Shown piece by piece: positions 26,116 to 34,953 of a DNA stretch of 64,000 bases. The DNA comes from Nitrosopumilus sp. (GTDB lineage Archaea; Thermoproteota; Nitrososphaeria; Nitrososphaerales; Nitrosopumilaceae), in assembly GCA_965224195.1 (NCBI GenBank), contig OZ245040.1, positions 256,001 to 320,000 on the forward strand. Reading direction: 5' to 3'. Under the pieces are notes generated by a model. It was given only the letters and a program-made list of their open reading frames with translations, was not told the DNA's origin and searched no databases. Both the position numbers and the translations under genes were made by a program. Every line of letters starts with the position of its first letter. The stretch's first letter is position 1.

Positions 26116-26301
26116 ATGGCGTTATACGGAATTTATGGCAGACATGAAATTGATACTTGTCCTTGGAATAATAAAGAAAATGCAAAGCGAGTAATCCAAA
26201 TTGTAAACAGTGACATGTCTCAAATATTGCCACAGTACAAAATCAATAAGATCATTGGTCAGTACCATTCAGGAAATGATTCAGATCATTTTTTAAAATG
26301 A
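26116..26301 (+). pseudogene. Probably truncated gene at the left island junction
   Basis: GGAGGTG RBS; MALYGIYGRHEIDTCP...GQYHS then stops 9 codons later as sequence character changes. Confidence 0.5.
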
Positions 26302-26336
26302 AGAGAATCAAAAGTCACGGCTCTCATCATCGCCTT

Positions 26337-26477
26337 CTATTTTTTCTCCTTGAGATATGTTCCGCACAGGCCGCATCTTGGTATCTTCATCCCACTTGCA
26401 AATTCACGGCCACATGAACATTTCACAATTCTTAGCTTGCCTTTTTCCTTATACTCTGCTGGTAATCCTGGAACCAT
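26337..26477 (-). CDS. 46-aa zinc-ribbon protein, virus-like
   Basis: Manual translation MVPGLPAEYKEKGKLRIVKCSCGREFASGMKIPRCGLCGTYLKEKK. Confidence 0.65.
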   Translation of the reverse strand: MVPGLPAEYKEKGKLRIVKCSCGREFASGMKIPRCGLCGTYLKEKK

Positions 26478-26505
26478 ATTACACATAAAACCATTTAATA
26501 TTTAA

Positions 26506-26526
26506 GTATAGTGTAATACACTATAC
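26506..26526. promoter_or_regulatory. Perfect palindrome, putative operator between divergent genes
   Basis: GTATAGTGTA-A-TACACTATAC. Confidence 0.6.
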
Positions 26527-26549
26527 ATTAATATGCAGGATGGTTCAGT

Positions 26550-27248
26550 ATGCTATACATGAATCAAATACAAATTCAAGAGGAAAAAATAATTTGCCAC
26601 GATGAGAATGATTTTAGATATTATTCTCATGATGATTCAATCTATGTATCAGCTACAACACTGCTCAATGAGATGCAAGACAAATCCTGGATGAAATATG
26701 TGAATCTGTCGCAAGAAGCTTTGTTGGACAGACGAAACAATGCGGCAAAAATTGGAACAGCAGTACATCAAGCTCTCTATGAAAAACTTTCAGGACTAAA
26801 TGTGACAAAGCTGGATCTGATTGCATCAGCACATGTATCACAGATTTCAGAACATCTCAATAAAATATCCGATGTTCGGGGACTGGACGAAATTATGAAA
26901 TCTGACACCCTCAAAGTGGCCGGAACTGCAGATGTTATTGCAACATATGATGGCGTCTCATCGGTGATAGATTTCAAGACGACACGAAAACCTCGTTACG
27001 GCAAACGACGAGATGTGTGGTATTTGCAAGCTGCAATGTATGCCTTTATGCATTATGAGCAGACAAATTTTATTGCAAATCAAATCGTCATCATAGAGTC
27101 ATGTGAAGACGGAAAATGCCGCATACACAAGGTAAAGTTTACAGACTATGCAGATGAGATGCTTGAGACAATTCAGATGTTCTACTTGCCTGAATTCATT
27201 GGAAATTCGCCAACAAAATATCTCGAGTTTTTGAGGAGGATGCAATAG
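26550..27248 (+). CDS. Virus-type PD-(D/E)XK exonuclease
   Basis: SATTLL, GTAVH, VAGTADVI, VIDFKT, YLQAAMY. Confidence 0.85.
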   Translation: MLYMNQIQIQEEKIICHDENDFRYYSHDDSIYVSATTLLNEMQDKSWMKYVNLSQEALLDRRNNAAKIGTAVHQALYEKLSGLNVTKLDLIASAHVSQISEHLNKISDVRGLDEIMKSDTLKVAGTADVIATYDGVSSVIDFKTTRKPRYGKRRDVWYLQAAMYAFMHYEQTNFIANQIVIIESCEDGKCRIHKVKFTDYADEMLETIQMFYLPEFIGNSPTKYLEFLRRMQ

Positions 27249-27249
27249 G

Positions 27250-27597
27250 ATGTCTGTCATATCTATGGCCTCAAGGTTTGATAGCACATGCAAGGTCTGC
27301 AATGTACAAATCAGAGCCGGTGATGCCATATACAAGGTAAATGAGCATTGGTGTAAAAATCAAAACTGTGGCAAGTCTGACAACCAAGTTCACATGGAGA
27401 AAAGACAACTTGATCTTGAGAATAAAACGCCGCTTGGCGACTTGTATTCTGAGATGTGCAGTGTCATTGATGCAAAGGCTGTGCTCTTGTATAAAATTAA
27501 TCAGAGAGTCTTGCATGCTCTCAAGAGATATGACGAGGCTCCAAACCCTGCAATGGTTGGGCAGTTTACAAAAATCATATATGACAAGCTAGGATGA
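27250..27597 (+). CDS. Virus-like zinc-binding hypothetical protein
   Basis: SRFDSTCKVC...IRAGDAI...WCKNQNC; abuts the exonuclease gene. Confidence 0.7.
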   Translation: MSVISMASRFDSTCKVCNVQIRAGDAIYKVNEHWCKNQNCGKSDNQVHMEKRQLDLENKTPLGDLYSEMCSVIDAKAVLLYKINQRVLHALKRYDEAPNPAMVGQFTKIIYDKLG

Positions 27598-27761
27598 TTG
27601 GTGATTTTAGCTTGTTTTATCATTCTGCATATGTCTTGATCTCACTGATATGACACGAATTAAATAAAAAACATCACAACATATCATTAATTTTATTATG
27701 ATGTATCTTTGATGTGTCAGACTAGCACAATACAGATATAATCACGCAGTAATAAAACCAC

Positions 27762-28451
27762 ATGGCACTGCTTTATGTTTTTATGGCATTGCTAATTTTA
27801 TCCAGTTTTATTCCGTTATCTTACTCTGAAGATATCAAGGGATATAATCATGATTCTAAAATACACATACAGATTCAAGGCGATACAACATCAGGCAAGA
27901 TAACACACAAGGATGTCCAGTATTCATGGGATGACATAAAGGTAATTTATAAAAATCAAAAGCTGTACATATTTGATAATGATATAAAAATTCTGGCAAA
28001 ACAAGTAACAGATTACAAGTATCTAATAATTGCAAAGCTTGCAGATGATGATGTTAGATTGAGGTTTTTGTCTGATGTATCAGAGCCTGCAAAAAACACT
28101 GCGCAGCGCAATCTGTTGGATGAAATGAATCAAAAAACTTTAGAGTCCAAGTCTGAACATGACATGACTTTTAAAGAAAAACAATTGCTAGAAAAGGAGA
28201 AAAAAATAGCAGAGGCAAAAAAGATATCAGATGACAGACTGGAAAGACTTGCAGAGCAAAATACAAAGAATATGAATGGTAAAACATCTCATAGCATTAT
28301 AGAGGATTGGAAGGAATCACAAAAACAGACGGGTATGAAATTGATAACTGATGATTCTAAAAAGACGGTAAAGCAGGATTCAAAAAAAGATGCCAAAAAG
28401 ATTATTCTAACTGAAGCCATTGCAACAAGTGACAGTGCAGCAGTCAATTAG
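27762..28451 (+). CDS. Secreted hypothetical protein (possibly truncated or chimeric)
   Basis: Signal peptide, charged C-terminal half. Confidence 0.6.
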   Translation: MALLYVFMALLILSSFIPLSYSEDIKGYNHDSKIHIQIQGDTTSGKITHKDVQYSWDDIKVIYKNQKLYIFDNDIKILAKQVTDYKYLIIAKLADDDVRLRFLSDVSEPAKNTAQRNLLDEMNQKTLESKSEHDMTFKEKQLLEKEKKIAEAKKISDDRLERLAEQNTKNMNGKTSHSIIEDWKESQKQTGMKLITDDSKKTVKQDSKKDAKKIILTEAIATSDSAAVN

Positions 28452-28512
28452 CTAATGGCTCCAGCTGGAGTCAGATGAGTTTGTACGACACCAAGATGAT
28501 ATTAGCAGCGTA

Positions 28513-28770
28513 ATGACCAGAGTAAATTCAAACTATGATAGTATGATATTTCATGAGAAGGACCGTGCATTACAGCATGCAAAAGATATGTATGGCAGTA
28601 TATATGACAGGCCGTCCTCTGATCTGGCAGAGCCTGTAACCATATGGATTGTGCCCTCATCAACAAACAAGCTGCAAAACCCGGAGATACTTGATACAAT
28701 GAAATTGGAGGAAGCAAAGGCAATGAGCTATTTACAGCATATGGTACGTGCTGATGTGTTACGTGAATAA
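28513..28770 (+). CDS. Hypothetical protein
   Basis: 85-aa ORF only. Confidence 0.4.
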   Translation: MTRVNSNYDSMIFHEKDRALQHAKDMYGSIYDRPSSDLAEPVTIWIVPSSTNKLQNPEILDTMKLEEAKAMSYLQHMVRADVLRE

Positions 28771-28779
28771 TATCCCGTA

Positions 28780-29229
28780 TTTTTTGAATCAGCATACAGT
28801 TTGACAGGAATTGGAATTACACATTTCACTGCAGACTCTATTTTTGCAATGTCTCTACACACTGTTGATGAATCAACTCTAAACAGATATTCCAGTAAAT
28901 CATAGCTTGTATAGCAACGATAGTAAATTAGCAACATCAGAATCCTATCCCTTGCTGAAAGTTTGAATGGTCTTCCAGCTCCAATGTTTCTTTTTCTGTC
29001 TTTTTTTGAGAGTCTTTTTCTCTCTGTAATCTTGTATTGTTTCTGTATCTCTTTTGTCAAAAAATCAAATTGTGTTGCAGTTATTCCTGTAAATCTCAGG
29101 AATTGTTTTGGTTTTCTTGCTAGTTTTGTATAATTTGGCATGAAATGAAATGGTTTGTACTTAGCTTTGGATCTTGTTGTGAGTGAATTTGGACTGTTCT
29201 ATCAGATTTAGTTAATTATGCAAGAGGTC
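28780..29229 (-). mobile_element. IS5-family element, left end + 5' half of transposase (start 29141)
   Basis: FLRFTGIT..QFDFL, GAGRPFKLS, LFRVDSSTVCR HTH; terminal IR GACCTCTTGCATAATTA at 29213-29229 flanked by TA. Confidence 0.9.
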
Positions 29230-29245
29230 TAATAAAAAAAGGAAT

Positions 29246-29479
29246 CTATTCTTGCTCCAACCACAATAACCAATAATCCTCAATTGAAGCTGCAAATCCA
29301 GACGTCATCGTAGTTTGATCTTCAGGTGAAATATATGATGCAGTAACCTCTGCACCTCCAAAACTCGCAGTGAAATCATTTAATGGTAAATTACTAAAAT
29401 CTGCGCCAGATGATAATATCATGACAACTCCAACTACAATAATAGCCAAACCTATTCCAATAATTATATTATTTGACAT
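29246..29479 (-). CDS. Small membrane-anchored hypothetical protein (possibly a fragment)
   Basis: N-terminal TM segment, 77 aa. Confidence 0.5.
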   Translation of the reverse strand: MSNNIIIGIGLAIIVVGVVMILSSGADFSNLPLNDFTASFGGAEVTASYISPEDQTTMTSGFAASIEDYWLLWLEQE

Positions 29480-29729
29480 GGTTACAAATAATTTTTCAAA
29501 TTAATTAGAATAATCAATGATTTTTTTCACGTTAAAGCTAATGATCGGTCAAATTATCTCTTTAGCGATCAAATACTTTAAGAAGGGATAAGGCGATGAA
29601 TGTACCTAACAACATGAACATTAAACCATGCTATGTACTTTTTAGTTAATTTTAGAAAAATTTTGTTAAACAACACTAATTTTGTCAGATTACAGATCAT
29701 TTATGAAATAGGGCATTATTTTATGAATA

Positions 29730-31286
29730 TTGGATTTTACAAAAGCACAAGAACAAATATCAAAAATTAGCAATGAAGGGGAAAGACAAGTAGGCGATCT
29801 ATTGCTCAACATGGGATTCACACTGATTGATTCTAATGTGATCGTTCTGAATTTGGATTCAAAAAGAATTGGTGAGATTGATCTAATTTTTGAAGTTGAA
29901 AATACACTTTTTTTAATAGATGCAAGTACGGACAAACATTCAGGAAGTAACAAAAAACTAGCATTTATTTCTAAATGGACAGATAAATCTAATCTAAATT
30001 TTCTAAAAAAATAATGTAAGTTAGGCAATCAAAAAGTTATGAGAATATATTTTGATTTACAACACAAAACACCAGATTCAGGTTCCGCAGAAATAGAAAA
30101 TGTGACAAAAATTGGAAAAATGAACAAGGTGTGTTATTCGGATGATTTTGAATACTTTACAAATTATGTTAAGAGGATTGGTCAATGGTCCAAAAATGAT
30201 TTTCTTGATTTCGTGGGGTATTCAGACAGACTAAATTATGTAAAAGTTGATGCAATTCAGTATTTTATTGGAAATTTACCCGTTTTTTGCTTTGTTGAAA
30301 GAGTAGAAAATTTGTTACGCACATGTTACATATCAAGAAGAAGAATTGGTGATTTAGGTTATCAGCGAACCCTAAAAGGAAATAGAGTGGTAAACATTTC
30401 TAACAACATCAAGACAGGAGTAGGGTTATCTTTTCCAAATTCCATCTTAATTAACACTCCACAATTAACTGAAGATATTTTATCTCCAGAGCAGTGTCCA
30501 GGAATTGTACAAATTAACTTTTCAACAAGCTATAGCACTTGTAGAATTATAGACGGTCAACATAGATTATTGGGGTTTGCAGGAACACCTAAAGCAATCC
30601 AAAGAGATTATTGTCTACCTGTTATCGCTTTACAAGGAATTGAATTAGAGAAAGAAATTCAAACATTCATTGATATTAATTCTAAACAACAACGAATGGA
30701 TGGAAACTTAATTCTACTTCTTAAATCGGATCTAAATTGGCCTAAAGACAGTAAAGGATATTATGAAAAAATATCAGTTGAAGCATCAAAAAGACTAGGT
30801 AGAACATTTTTCAAAAACAGGATTTTTTTCGGATATGCAGATGAGACTAAAGGAACCAAAATCACATTGGCAACGTTAGTAACTAATATGCGTCGTAATG
30901 GTCAGGTTGAGGAAACTGTTGAAAAAACATTCAAAAAATTATCTAACATTTTGAAACTCATGCAAGAATATTTACAAGCACATTCGTTTGTAGATGGAAC
31001 TTATTTTGGTCACAATAGAGGAATCAGTGTATTGTTTAGATTAATTCGATTACTTGAGCGAAATTTTCTAGCCGATACCATATCTATAAGTAAAGAGGAA
31101 TTTTTTAAAGATTTAGGACATATCTTTAATTCAAAATTAATTGTAACTTTAGATAATTATTATGGGGAAGGTGGCTCAAATGCCGCAGCAGCGAAAATCA
31201 TAGAAGAACTGCAAGCAAATTATCTAAAAAAAAAATACAAAGAAATGGAATCAAATCTAAATCAATTACCTAGAATAAAAAAATAG
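29730..31286 (+). pseudogene. PD-(D/E)XK-like nuclease fused to DGQHR (DndB-like) domain, split by one in-frame TAA at 30012-30014
   Basis: ORFs 29730-30014 and 30039-31286 share a frame; GEIDLIFE, GYQRTL, FPNSILIN, IIDGQHRL, FIDINSKQ. Confidence 0.85.
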
Positions 31287-31462
31287 GGAATTTGTGATAA
31301 CTTTTGATCGTAATTTTTAAAAAAACATACAAGCTGGAAAAATCTTGAAAGAAATAGTAAAAGTGGTTTCCGTGTCCTAGCAGAACTTTACTCACCTTGT
31401 GTGGAGAATAGAGAAACCATTATTCAACAAGTAATCATAGTAAATAAACTGATCTAGTTAGG

Positions 31463-31546
31463 CGTAGAGAGCGGGATTTGAATCCACGGGTCTGCTAGGA
31501 CACTTGCTCTTAAGGCGAGCGCATTACCATGCTCTGCCATCTCTAC
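31463..31546 (-). tRNA. Degenerate class II tRNA, anticodon UAA (nominal Leu) with Ser-like features; probable pseudo-tRNA
   Basis: Cloverleaf GTAGAGA/TCTCTAC, loop CTTAAGA, long variable arm, TTCAAAT; mismatches C29-A41 and A53-C61; G73. Confidence 0.75.
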
Positions 31547-31810
31547 AAGAACATTCATGGATTACAGCTATTTAGTAGTAGATTCAACAATTATTGAATG
31601 TCAATAAAAAATAAGAATAATGATTGATCGCCTTTGTATTCATCATTATTTGGGTTCAGTTAGTCTGAATGATCATCACTATCAGATTGTTTGTCCATTG
31701 AGATCCTATAGCATTACAAAGGATATGACTGGATATCATAGTTTGAACTAAAAAAATCATGAAAAAACAGAAATTCCTAGTACACCTAAAAAAACTACAG
31801 AGCAAGAATA

Positions 31811-32439
31811 GACCTCTTGCATAATTAGAAACAAAATACCATCTTTCATTCTTGACAGATTCTAATTTTATGAAATTGCCATGAATTCTTCTCTCCATTT
31901 TATCTTGAAATTAATAATTCCACAAACAATGTCACTTGTTCCATCATATCTGCACAATCTATTCCTAAATGTTTCTGAATTGATTCTAAATTTCTTTATT
32001 CTACTAATTGCATGTTCTACTTTTATTCTGATTTTACTTTGTAACTTGTTCCAATCCTTTTGAGATGCAGTCAACTCTTTTCCTTTTTTTCTCTTGTATG
32101 GTAAGATGCTAGTTTGTTTTGGGAAATCTTTCTCAACACCCAAATATCCAAGATCATAAAATACCATTAAATCTTCAGATAAAACAGGATATTTTATTTT
32201 CAGTATTGCGTAATCATTTCTTCGTCCAAGGGAATGTGGAGGTTTGTGAATAATCTCACCATTCAGGTTAATCGTAATTTGATTTTTGATTGTATGTCTT
32301 TTCTTTTTGCCTGAATAGTGAGTTTTTCTCTTCTTCTTATTTTTTAGTCTTGGGATTTGCTGTTCTGTTCCATCAGTAATTGCAATCAGTTCAGGAAAGA
32401 ATTCCTGCAGTTGCTGTATGTCGTTAATCTTTTTTGAAT
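31811..32439 (-). mobile_element. IS5-family element, 3' half of transposase (DDE domain, stop 31868) + right end
   Basis: ITDGTEQQIP, YSGKKKRHT, YDLGYLG, RIKVEHAISRIK; IR at 31811-31827 flanked by TA. Confidence 0.92.
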
Positions 32440-32615
32440 GTTATGTTATCTGATACTTTGGTCAAAACTAGGCTGGATTTTCAACTGATGGTAAATTCGG
32501 GTGACAGAGTGGTTCAGTTAGGGTTACCAACGCCTTAACATTGCAAAGCTGACAACAAACAACCTCTCTTTTTTTATTTTAAAATGTTAAAATACAACTA
32601 TACTAAATTATTATT

Positions 32616-32759
32616 ATGGCATCAAAGCGCATAACCATTATGATTGATGAGAAAAATCACGCCAAAATACGTAAAATTCAGGCTAAGAGAATTCTAAATG
32701 AGAATCGCGCTGTTAGTTTTTCTCAAGTCATTAATGATCAATTAGCAAAAAGTTTCTAA
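32616..32759 (+). CDS. 47-aa ribbon-helix-helix protein
   Basis: Manual translation MASKRITIMIDEKNHAKIRKIQAKRILNENRAVSFSQVINDQLAKSF. Confidence 0.8.
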   Translation: MASKRITIMIDEKNHAKIRKIQAKRILNENRAVSFSQVINDQLAKSF

Positions 32760-32959
32760 AAATCTAGTTTCTGTGTATGGTATAATCCATACACTTTTTG
32801 TAAAATACCTCAGTTAATTTATTGTTCTCCAATGATTTTATTTTAGTATGTACTTTTATGAAAACTATATTCTGTCTGATGCGTAAAAGTCATGCCTCAG
32901 TACATTGCACAGATGTCAATCCAAAATAGTTAAATCACGCATACGGATCACCCCAAGCC

Positions 32960-33121
32960 ATGATGTGTGATATATGCCAAAAAGAGATAGGTGGGGCAGC
33001 ACCGCACTTTTACATCCACTTTACTACCAAGATGGACGGCATGCATGATCTGTCAAAACGAAGAGTAAAAAAGATTATGAAGCGCAAGTTTCCCCAAGAT
33101 CTATTCACTAAAAAATTATGA
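32960..33121 (+). CDS. 53-aa C2H2-like zinc-finger protein
   Basis: MMCDICQKEIGGAAPHFYIH...; ATGA overlap with the next ORF. Confidence 0.5.
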   Translation: MMCDICQKEIGGAAPHFYIHFTTKMDGMHDLSKRRVKKIMKRKFPQDLFTKKL

Positions 33122-33217
33122 ATGCAATACGTAAAACAGTCTGGAAGGGATCAGATAGGCAATGTAGCATCAGCGGCAGCAGAACGCAGACCCGTAAGTT
33201 ACAACACATCTTACGCA

Positions 33218-33804
33218 TTCCTGAACTGATTGCAATTACTGATGGAACAGAACAGCAAATCCCAAGACTAAAAAATAAGAAGAAGAGAAAAACTCACTAT
33301 TCAGGCAAAAAGAAAAGACATACAATCAAAAATCAAATTACGATTAACCTGAATGGTGAGATTATTCACAAACCTCCACATTCCCTTGGACGAAGAAATG
33401 ATTACGCAATACTGAAAATAAAATATCCTGTTTTATCTGAAGATTTAATGGTATTTTATGATCTTGGATATTTGGGTGTTGAGAAAGATTTCCCAAAACA
33501 AACTAGCATCTTACCATACAAGAGAAAAAAAGGAAAAGAGTTGACTGCATCTCAAAAGGATTGGAACAAGTTACAAAGTAAAATCAGAATAAAAGTAGAA
33601 CATGCAATTAGTAGAATAAAGAAATTTAGAATCAATTCAGAAACATTTAGGAATAGATTGTGCAGATATGATGGAACAAGTGACATTGTTTGTGGAATTA
33701 TTAATTTCAAGATAAAATGGAGAGAAGAATTCATGGCAATTTCATAAAATTAGAATCTGTCAAGAATGAAAGATGGTATTTTGTTTCTAATTATGCAAGA
33801 GGTC
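33218..33804 (+). mobile_element. IS5-family 3' fragment + right end, fused in frame to a foreign 33-codon leader (ORF 33118-33747)
   Basis: DDE domain; IR at 33788-33804 followed by TA. Confidence 0.92.
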
Positions 33805-34953
33805 TACCAAAGTTTGTTGCATTATTTGGTGAGACAGTTGAGCTTATACCATTAAGGTTAGTTAGGATAGAATCATCGTTATCTGCAATGGTTAGTACTG
33901 CGTTAGCAGCACCTTGTGCGTTAGTATCAATTAGAAGTCTACAGTTGTCTTCACACATTAGTGAATCTACTGTACCATCTATGTTGATTGCTGCACCACC
34001 ACTTGCACCATTTTCATCGAATACTTGGTAGTGTGCACCACGTGATGTGGCGTTATCTACGTTTGTACCAAATGTCCAAGAGTCTTCATCAGTTGGGTTA
34101 ATGTTTAGCCATGAGTCAGTAATTGTTGTGTGTATTTGTGATCCTTGAGGATATACAGTTCTATCTAAACTTGAACCGGCGAATTCGTCGACATCATCAA
34201 AAGTAAGTGTTACTGATTGAGCATTACCTGCTGGATTGTATTGTACGACTACGTCACCCTTGTCTGAGTTTAGAGGATAGAACTGAATAAATGGCCAAAT
34301 TGAACTAGAAGCACCATCAGTTGCTACTGTGGTTTCGACTCCGATTTGTCCTACTGGCATGTTTGTATTTTCATTTACATCTTTTGATTCTCTCAAAACA
34401 TTTTGTGTAAATGCACCTGCTGCATTACCCGTGACACAAGCTGCAGCGATGTCACCACCAGTTGCGCTTCCATCGGTTAATTCTGTGGTCATTTGAGAGC
34501 GTTTGCAAATGCGACACCAACGGTATCACCAAATGAAACGGCTGATAGAGTACCTGCAGATGTTGCACTACAGAATACACCAAAGTCTAATCCAGCGCCA
34601 GCATTACCTGCTGCAGTTGAATCGGCTATTTGTGCTTGATCTCTATCGGCGAAGTAACCATACCAGTTACCATCAATACCTTGAACCATTCTCAGGATCT
34701 TACCGTTGATTGTAACGTCTGGCTCACCTTTTCCCTCGTCAGTATCATTAATATTAGAATCAATTATGACTACCTCAATTACTTGAGGTCCTGACATGTA
34801 ATTGCCAAAGTCTGAGTTTTCTGCGGAAACAAATAGGTTAGCGTTGGTTGCAAATGCTGGTTCCATTCCTGGAACTGCAAATGTTAAACCACCGGCTAAC
34901 ATAATTGTCATTAATGTAAGACTAGTTATTTTACGTCCTATTTCGTTATTCAT
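33805..34953 (-). pseudogene. slaA: Major S-layer protein, frameshifted near 34490-34500 and truncated by the IS
   Basis: MNNEIGRKITSLTLMTIM..NANLFVSAENS..GEPDVTING..WPFIQ..NINPTDEDSWTF; only ~380 codons remain; stop supplied by the IS end. Confidence 0.88.

Follow-up and report, generated by a model that had tools for sequence, protein, structure and literature searches.

The genome of a Nitrosopumilus sp. carries an insertion sequence (IS) that has been opened inside its own transposase gene, with its two halves now flanking a foreign cargo. The arrangement lies in a 64,000-nucleotide stretch of chromosome (hereafter the window; C1:256001-320000) of a 2.07-Mb genome with 33.6% G+C, assembled in two contigs. 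An ammonium transporter gene and kinship at the family level point to an ammonia-oxidising thaumarchaeon. Both ends of the rearranged unit are exact reciprocal exchanges at a 10-bp identity, and we think it probable, though well short of certain, that they arose through a local accident of short-homology recombination involving a nearby half-IS rather than through a dedicated integration system.

The permuted unit occupies 28780-32439 and comprises 3,650 bp, of which 1,069 bp belong to the IS, termed IS-A, and 2,581 bp to the cargo (both TAs counted). It is bounded by the 10-bp direct repeat TTTTTTGAAT at 28780-28789 and 32430-32439. Read on the minus strand, the order between the 10-mers is IS-A 3′ part, cargo, IS-A 5′ part. 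The 3′ part (31811-32439, minus strand; IS positions 441-1069) carries the DDE_Tnp_4 domain and the right inverted repeat (IRR), whereas the 5′ part (28790-29229, minus strand; IS positions 1-440) holds the left inverted repeat (IRL), the promoter side and the HTH_Tnp_4 domain; the cargo between them spans 29230-31810, with TA at either end. The terminal inverted repeats (IRs) are perfect over 17 bp (GACCTCTTGCATAATTA), both point into the cargo, and a TA stands beside each (29230-31 and 31809-10). At the left 10-mer, the left part of the target (F-left, 26269-28779, plus strand) forms a hybrid junction with the IS 5′ part; at the right 10-mer, the IS 3′ part meets the right part of the target (F-right, 32440-33217, plus strand). 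An initial annotation of the window had described the unit in these terms—its length, repeat ends, cargo-facing IRs and TA flanks—and the sequence bears this description out.

The only intact IS-A copy in the genome (C1:574965-576033), bordered at either end by TA, represents the IS parent of the two junctions. Alignment to this copy places the right half of the window's IS at 574960-575593 and its left half at 575584-576035, and the stretch common to both is exactly the 10-mer. When the halves are joined in silico and compared with the intact copy, both measure 1,071 bp (TA at the 3′ end included) and differ by 26 mismatches and no indel, corresponding to 97.6% identity, and a 307-amino-acid (aa) open reading frame (ORF) is present in the two alike. 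The proposal that the rejoined ends restore an intact IS of ~1069 bp and its 307-aa transposase, with nothing lost or gained, therefore agrees with an independent copy. Pfam analysis of the split transposase placed HTH_Tnp_4 (9.5e-12) in the N part and DDE_Tnp_4 (2.1e-22) together with DDE_Tnp_1 in the C part, while the sole NCBIfam match of the IS-A transposase, the curated IS5 transposase model NF033581, scored 88 bits against a cut-off of 140. The IS5-family feature of terminal IRs with a short target duplication is present, the intact copy and all IS-A ends being flanked by TA, which could reflect target preference as well as duplication.

The target parent is a member of a multi-copy module, F, whose further copies were located by blastn against the genome near C1 794-799k, 1018k, 1156-1162k, 1505-1513k, 1551k, 1602k and 1620-1626k. 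In all five flank paralogs that cover the empty site (C1 ~798k, 1018k, 1161k, 1505k and 1551k), this site is uninterrupted and reads ...ATCCCG(T/C)A-TTTTTTGAAT-G(T/C)TATGTTATC..., so the empty site predicted by the initial annotation does exist in related copies. Each paralog holds the empty-site 10-mer singly, 9 nt past the stop of a conserved 85-aa ORF, and the last ORF of F-left (28513-28770) likewise stops 9 nt upstream of the 10-mer. Once the 3,650 bp are removed, the window aligns gap-free to these five paralogs; letters such as GTGTTACGTGAATAA before the 10-mer are this locus' own, and the paralogs differ there.

Similarity between the IS-A and F partners is limited to the 10 bp. The short identity occurs once in each parent, the two hybrid junctions stand in direct order, and no base was gained or lost, as in Campbell-type integration. 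Because an intact IS and empty-site paralogs exist and no similarity extends past the 10 bp, both junctions represent a real and exact reciprocal exchange at a 10-mer present once per partner, an outcome that chance does not produce.

The ends of the cargo provide independent support for a circular topology. A 77-aa hydrophobic ORF (29246-29479, minus strand) has a terminator hairpin that is split by the IS, with one arm at 29247-29257 (TATTCTTGCTC), the other at 31800-31810 (GAGCAAGAATA), and a T7 run in the 31790s on the minus strand. Joining the cargo ends without the IS and one TA yields an 11-12-bp hairpin plus the T7 run, right after the 77-aa ORF; in a random control, a spanning inverted repeat of at least 9 bp appeared in 54 of 5,000 random pairs. 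Because the joined ends rebuild a terminator hairpin, they must formerly have been contiguous. IS-A would then be a simple TA insertion, at the hairpin top, into a ring (or tandem) of 2,579 bp. The earlier idea of a ring made of one IS and 2581 bp of cargo, opened at 10 bp inside the transposase, is supported in its topology by the rejoining, and the hairpin adds independent, indirect support.

What the initial annotation overlooked is an inverted, 100% identical half-IS situated 778 bp to the right of the unit, at a large synteny break. This second truncated IS-A 3′ half (33218-33804, plus strand; IS positions 483-1069) is identical to 31811-32397, and with the TA included the identity covers 589 bp: the arms 31809-32397 and 33218-33806 match each other at 100%, and the intact copy elsewhere at 97.3%. 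As perfect inverted arms they enclose an 820-bp spacer (32398-33217), which should flip by homologous recombination and may therefore exist in both orientations in culture; it contains small ORFs at 32616-32759 and 32960-33121. Because the inverted half-IS lies so near, a history is possible in which no free circle takes part in the last step, consisting instead of an inversion and a flip.

The far side of the half-IS is itself a broken gene. In relatives this giant gene encodes ~1,720 aa and lies 3′ of a ThiF-like gene, with a match in 36 of 40 genus genomes. Its remnant in the window (33807-34953) covers ~residues 1-382 in two frames, of which the fragment at 33807-34492 (minus strand; ~residues 158-382) is cut at the IRR-TA of the half-IS. 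Residues ~1348-1721 and five downstream genes are found at C1:445187-458663, inverted and ~155 kb off, in a block that adjoins copies of two further IS families, IS-B and IS-C; the middle of the gene is missing. With the giant gene severed at this point and the rest of it ~155 kb away, inverted, beside IS copies, the locus is a breakpoint of large IS-associated rearrangements, in a region that forms a rearrangement hot spot. The cargo was considered as the missing part of the giant gene and rejected, as tblastn gave no match within it. We also rejected the idea that 31811-33804 moved as a single IRR-IRR composite, because the cargo and the giant gene, which flank it here, do not adjoin in relatives.

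A census of IS pieces places the event in its genomic setting. IS-A is present as one full and six partial pieces, IS-B (1,070 bp, 75% related to IS-A) as 23 full and three partial ones, and IS-C (~1 kb) as 10 full and 11 partial ones, a heavy IS load for the genus. Among all pieces of the three families, the permuted pair described here is the only one found. Break points in the other IS-A fragments lie at IS positions 435, 483, 45/977 and 881/1038—none of the four at the 10-mer, which lends no support to a recurrent break at that site—and the break at 435 is that of an IS-A half (C1:1270515-1270949) that stops at the TA where an IS-B inserted. The 10-mer itself is common, with 146 copies in the chromosome and occurrences within seven of the 23 IS-B copies. 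Only two of these 146 copies, the target and one 400 bp from it, lie within ~1 kb of a resident IS-A piece. A programmed frameshift site in the 10-mer region (A AAA AAG in frame) was considered as an explanation for the clustered breaks and is ruled out by the single ORF of 303-317 aa found in most of the 23 IS-B copies as well as in both versions of IS-A.

From these observations we infer the following order of events. IS-A would first have inserted at the TA atop the terminator hairpin of a 2.58-kb foreign ring, which would then have entered the resident half-IS through ordinary homologous recombination; we place this entry first because 587 bp of perfect homology would recombine far more readily than 10 bp. 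The resulting precursor would have read F-left / 10-mer / F-right / half-IS / cargo / intact IS / giant-gene fragment. Two routes could lead from there to the present arrangement. By route (a), the two 10-mers, by then inverted and 4.4 kb apart, would recombine to produce an inversion, and the 820-bp spacer would flip between the 589-bp arms. By route (b), the direct IS repeats would excise a 3.65-kb ring, which as a physical intermediate would re-enter at the 10-mer. By either route the present 6,501 bp are a pure permutation of the proposed precursor.

Every history requires one rare exchange at the 10-mer, which we interpret as illegitimate recombination that neither the transposase nor an integrase would have catalysed. 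No enzyme is indicated at this site, because the split gene encodes a DDE transposase and no integrase lies in the cargo or in three F copies: domain searches found none among 25 ORFs in those copies, nor among 23 window ORFs. Microhomology-mediated joining is documented in archaea (PMC12281630, PMC5435918). A variant in which homology-facilitated illegitimate recombination was anchored in the half-IS was rejected by reasoning, the anchor and the 10-mer being wrongly oriented. A local event is favoured over an independent integration because the target is, among 146 10-mers, all but alone in lying near an IS-A piece.

Several points weigh against this account. The precursor arrangement is hypothetical, and none of the genomes or runs examined shows it. 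Direct integration of a ring needs fewer steps overall. No model accounts for the junction at which F-right meets IS position 483 (33217/33218). The stretch is covered by five public runs, the best-covering of which may be the source sample; in the four examined, as contigs only, the joints listed include no flipped isomer and no strand-changing joint, with the proviso that run contigs drop rare variants. Finally, att sites of only 8 bp are on record for Thaumarchaeota (PMC6563490), and given such sites a 10-bp core may, taken alone, be compatible with an enzyme-mediated event.

The alternative that survives best, although we consider it unlikely, is in its core the proposal of the initial annotation: a free 3.65-kb ring, a small episome with one IS, would have integrated directly at the F 10-mer by a single 10-bp crossover, the half-IS being unrelated. 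It offers the fewest steps, the ring topology it presupposes is supported by the in silico rejoining and the hairpin, and both parental 10-mers exist. That such a ring should strike, of 146 sites, one just 778 bp from an IS-A half of 100% identity would nevertheless be a ~1-in-100 coincidence, and a ring with 587 bp of perfect homology would prefer the half-IS over 10 bp. A second, unrelated small replicon-like contig attests extrachromosomal DNA in the organism or culture, which favours a free episome, but Pfam and NCBIfam searches found no replication or integration gene in the cargo. The sole ring-type joint in the run contigs (32429 -> 28780, in three of four runs) has the sequence of any intact IS-A copy and is hence not diagnostic of a ring; empty-site-like loose ends in the run contigs match paralogs. 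The organisms sampled in runs X3 and X4 share the cargo-IS junctions of this unit. Sequence alone cannot separate this independent direct integration from the local accident. The second contig (C2:1-7434) shares no sequence with the chromosome. It encodes a DNA polymerase of the protein-primed family B (DNA_pol_B_2, 1.4e-33) and is possibly a virus-like element or a small plasmid of linear form.

It is highly improbable that the structure is an assembly or amplification artefact, including a wrongly phased 820-bp spacer, in which case the true molecule would be a simple inversion without 10-bp direct repeats. The region is indeed repeat-rich, with F copies and three IS families; the 589-bp arms are beyond phasing by short reads; and the public data are contigs, from runs of which the best-covering may be the source sample. 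Yet a two-contig assembly that resolves 23 near-identical IS-B copies would imply long reads, a chimera would not yield two reciprocal junctions without loss, and a 57-nt contig of one public run (run X2; 28756-28812) spans the left junction with 0 mismatches.

A slimmer chance still is that the unit is a living ring-forming mobile element of ammonia-oxidising archaea, a small episome or translocatable unit (TU) composed of the IS, tRNA-Leu and the DGQHR gene, which enters and leaves chromosomes at the 10-bp core as an off/on switch of the transposase; if true, Thaumarchaeota would thereby gain their first described plasmid-like or TU-like element and their first cargo borne by an IS. The least credible reading is a programmed, reversible integration, with the 10-mer as an att-like core in the transposase gene and, as the initial annotation suggested, integration silencing the transposase as in SSV-type elements: the 10-bp repeat lies within the thaumarchaeal att range of at least 8 bp (PMC6563490), precise excision would restore the 307-aa ORF, and three IS-A break points (435, 441-450 and 483) fall within 48 bp, but the enzyme is a DDE transposase and not a tyrosine recombinase, neither the cargo nor the target was found to encode a recombinase, the other IS-A fragments break elsewhere (at 435 through the IS-B insertion at TA), and so common a 10-mer was used once in the genome.

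The cargo is foreign: DGQHR genes are rare in the family and its tRNA matches none of the genus genomes searched. Among 200 further genomes of the family, four have DGQHR homologs, with identities of 28-32%, and in a plasmid collection homologs are just 26-32% identical and lie on bacterial plasmids of 10-860 kb, seven of 10 exceeding 100 kb. The cargo tRNA-Leu(UAA) (31461-31546, minus strand), whose acceptor reads GTAGAGA..., is atypical and does not resemble the four host-type Leu tRNAs; it had no match in any of 20 genomes of the genus, and an exact 24-nt query taken from it gave 0 matches in collections of genome contigs and of viral contigs. A DNA search of 30 relatives returned no cargo homologue, only short matches of 30-63 bp in five of them (E 2e-5 to 9e-4), and a search for loci related to the cargo confirmed 0. 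Within the genome the cargo is single-copy except for a 94% identical fragment at C1:1896627-1897193. That fragment comprises the 3′ end of the DGQHR gene and downstream DNA; it sits in a variable island, where an HNH endonuclease, a metallophosphoesterase and a helicase-like gene adjoin.

What the initial annotation called a nuclease-DGQHR gene does occupy one reading frame (29730-31286, plus strand), but this frame is interrupted by an in-frame TAA at 30012-30014. Upstream of the TAA lies a weak YraN-like nuclease N-part (29730-30011), and downstream a DGQHR-domain protein (30039-31286) that matches TIGR03187 with 82.3 bits (cut-off 58.85). Relatives have open frames of 520-575 aa.

We considered whether the cargo tRNA could be the sole tRNA-Leu(UAA) of the organism, which would make the cargo essential chromosome, and rejected this in view of a host-type gene at C1:492474-492596. 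ARAGORN and Rfam detected no other Leu-UAA gene. The candidate host-type tRNA-Leu(UAA) at C1:492474-492596 (plus strand) has two apparent introns, in the D region and the anticodon loop; these were read by eye, the gene being missed by ARAGORN (-i) and by the Rfam tRNA model. Because this host-type candidate exists, the cargo tRNA would be an extra copy. A further tRNA at C1:246665-246757 (minus strand) was seen by Rfam and not by ARAGORN, and reads by eye as tRNA-Arg(CCU) with a D-loop intron.

The split leaves the transposase gene in two parts, HTH and DDE; nothing short of a precise deletion from one 10-bp repeat to the other would make it whole again. Two products are possibly expressible at the locus. 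The truncated ORF of the IS-A 5′ part (28728-29141, minus strand), which runs on into F, would encode a 137-aa HTH-only protein with its own start; a 209-aa DDE-only ORF (33118-33747, plus strand) draws its first ~34 residues from F-right. Module F is a multi-copy mosaic of a Cas4-like PD-(D/E)XK nuclease, PKD-domain proteins and many small ORFs; in F-left, Pfam and NCBIfam place the nuclease at 26550-27248, with small ORFs alongside. The 85 bp that follow the right 10-mer (32440-32524) are 98-99% conserved in other F copies, whereas the neighbouring ORF is conserved at just 87-91%, and the F copies diverge after ...TTAGGGT into two alternative continuations.

Collectively, the locus represents a one-off rearrangement that probably came about by accident; the kind of event is known and this instance of it new, and current ideas on transposition or integration are left unchanged. 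Its value lies in a base-level view of reshuffling in an IS-rich ammonia-oxidiser genome and in showing that, in this lineage, an identity of 10 bp can be enough for reciprocal exchange. The locus also offers indirect evidence that a 2.6-kb ring with tRNA and DGQHR genes once existed in a thaumarchaeon; to our knowledge, no plasmids have been isolated from Thaumarchaeota. For annotation, two 'transposase pseudogenes' 2.6 kb apart are in fact one IS, and the tRNA-Leu(UAA) between them is an import, not one of the host's own.

Comparison with known systems clarifies what the unit resembles and where it departs from each. A literature search, part of whose sources was available in extracts, yielded no account of a permuted IS or of an IS that is opened within its transposase gene and has cargo lying between its two ends, in line with the earlier remark that this architecture lacks a published description. 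A composite transposon would have two IS copies with outward ends bracketing the cargo; here the IRs face the cargo and half an IS lies on each side. PMC6563490 states that no composite transposons with passenger genes were detected in archaea. A thaumarchaeal integrated element (Krupovic et al. 2019) would combine att-length repeats with an integrase or other mobility module of its own; the repeat found here is within the att range in length (at least 8 bp; PMC6563490), and no integrase was found with it.

The attP core of an SSV-type element is located within its integrase gene because it is the site that this enzyme itself uses. The likeness is that halves of a mobility-enzyme gene flank the integrated DNA and that precise excision restores the gene. 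What is split in the present unit, unlike in these elements, is not a tyrosine recombinase gene with an att core but a DDE transposase gene, whose product is not known to act at the 10-mer, and the site was not reused.

The translocatable unit of IS26 is similar in consisting of one IS plus adjacent DNA with a circular topology, and such a unit is reported to insert beside a resident IS26, leaving intact IS copies as direct repeats (PMC4196232, PMC4676283). Here the transposase is IS5-like and not of the IS6 family, the IS is opened internally, intact direct IS copies do not bracket the insert, and no junction is transposase-made. A plasmid-chromosome cointegrate formed between IS copies corresponds to the proposed first step, entry at the half-IS, and to the last, the flip between the arms; alone it cannot give a permuted IS, and one 10-bp exchange is still required.

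That exchange is the part of the history that short-homology integration of the Campbell type describes, for which the classic examples come from bacterial plasmids. As in those cases, there are two hybrid junctions, each keeping one copy of the short identity, with no loss or gain. The present case differs in that the identity lies inside the transposase gene of the unit's own IS, that a nearby homologous half-IS was probably involved, and that the host is an archaeal ammonia-oxidiser.

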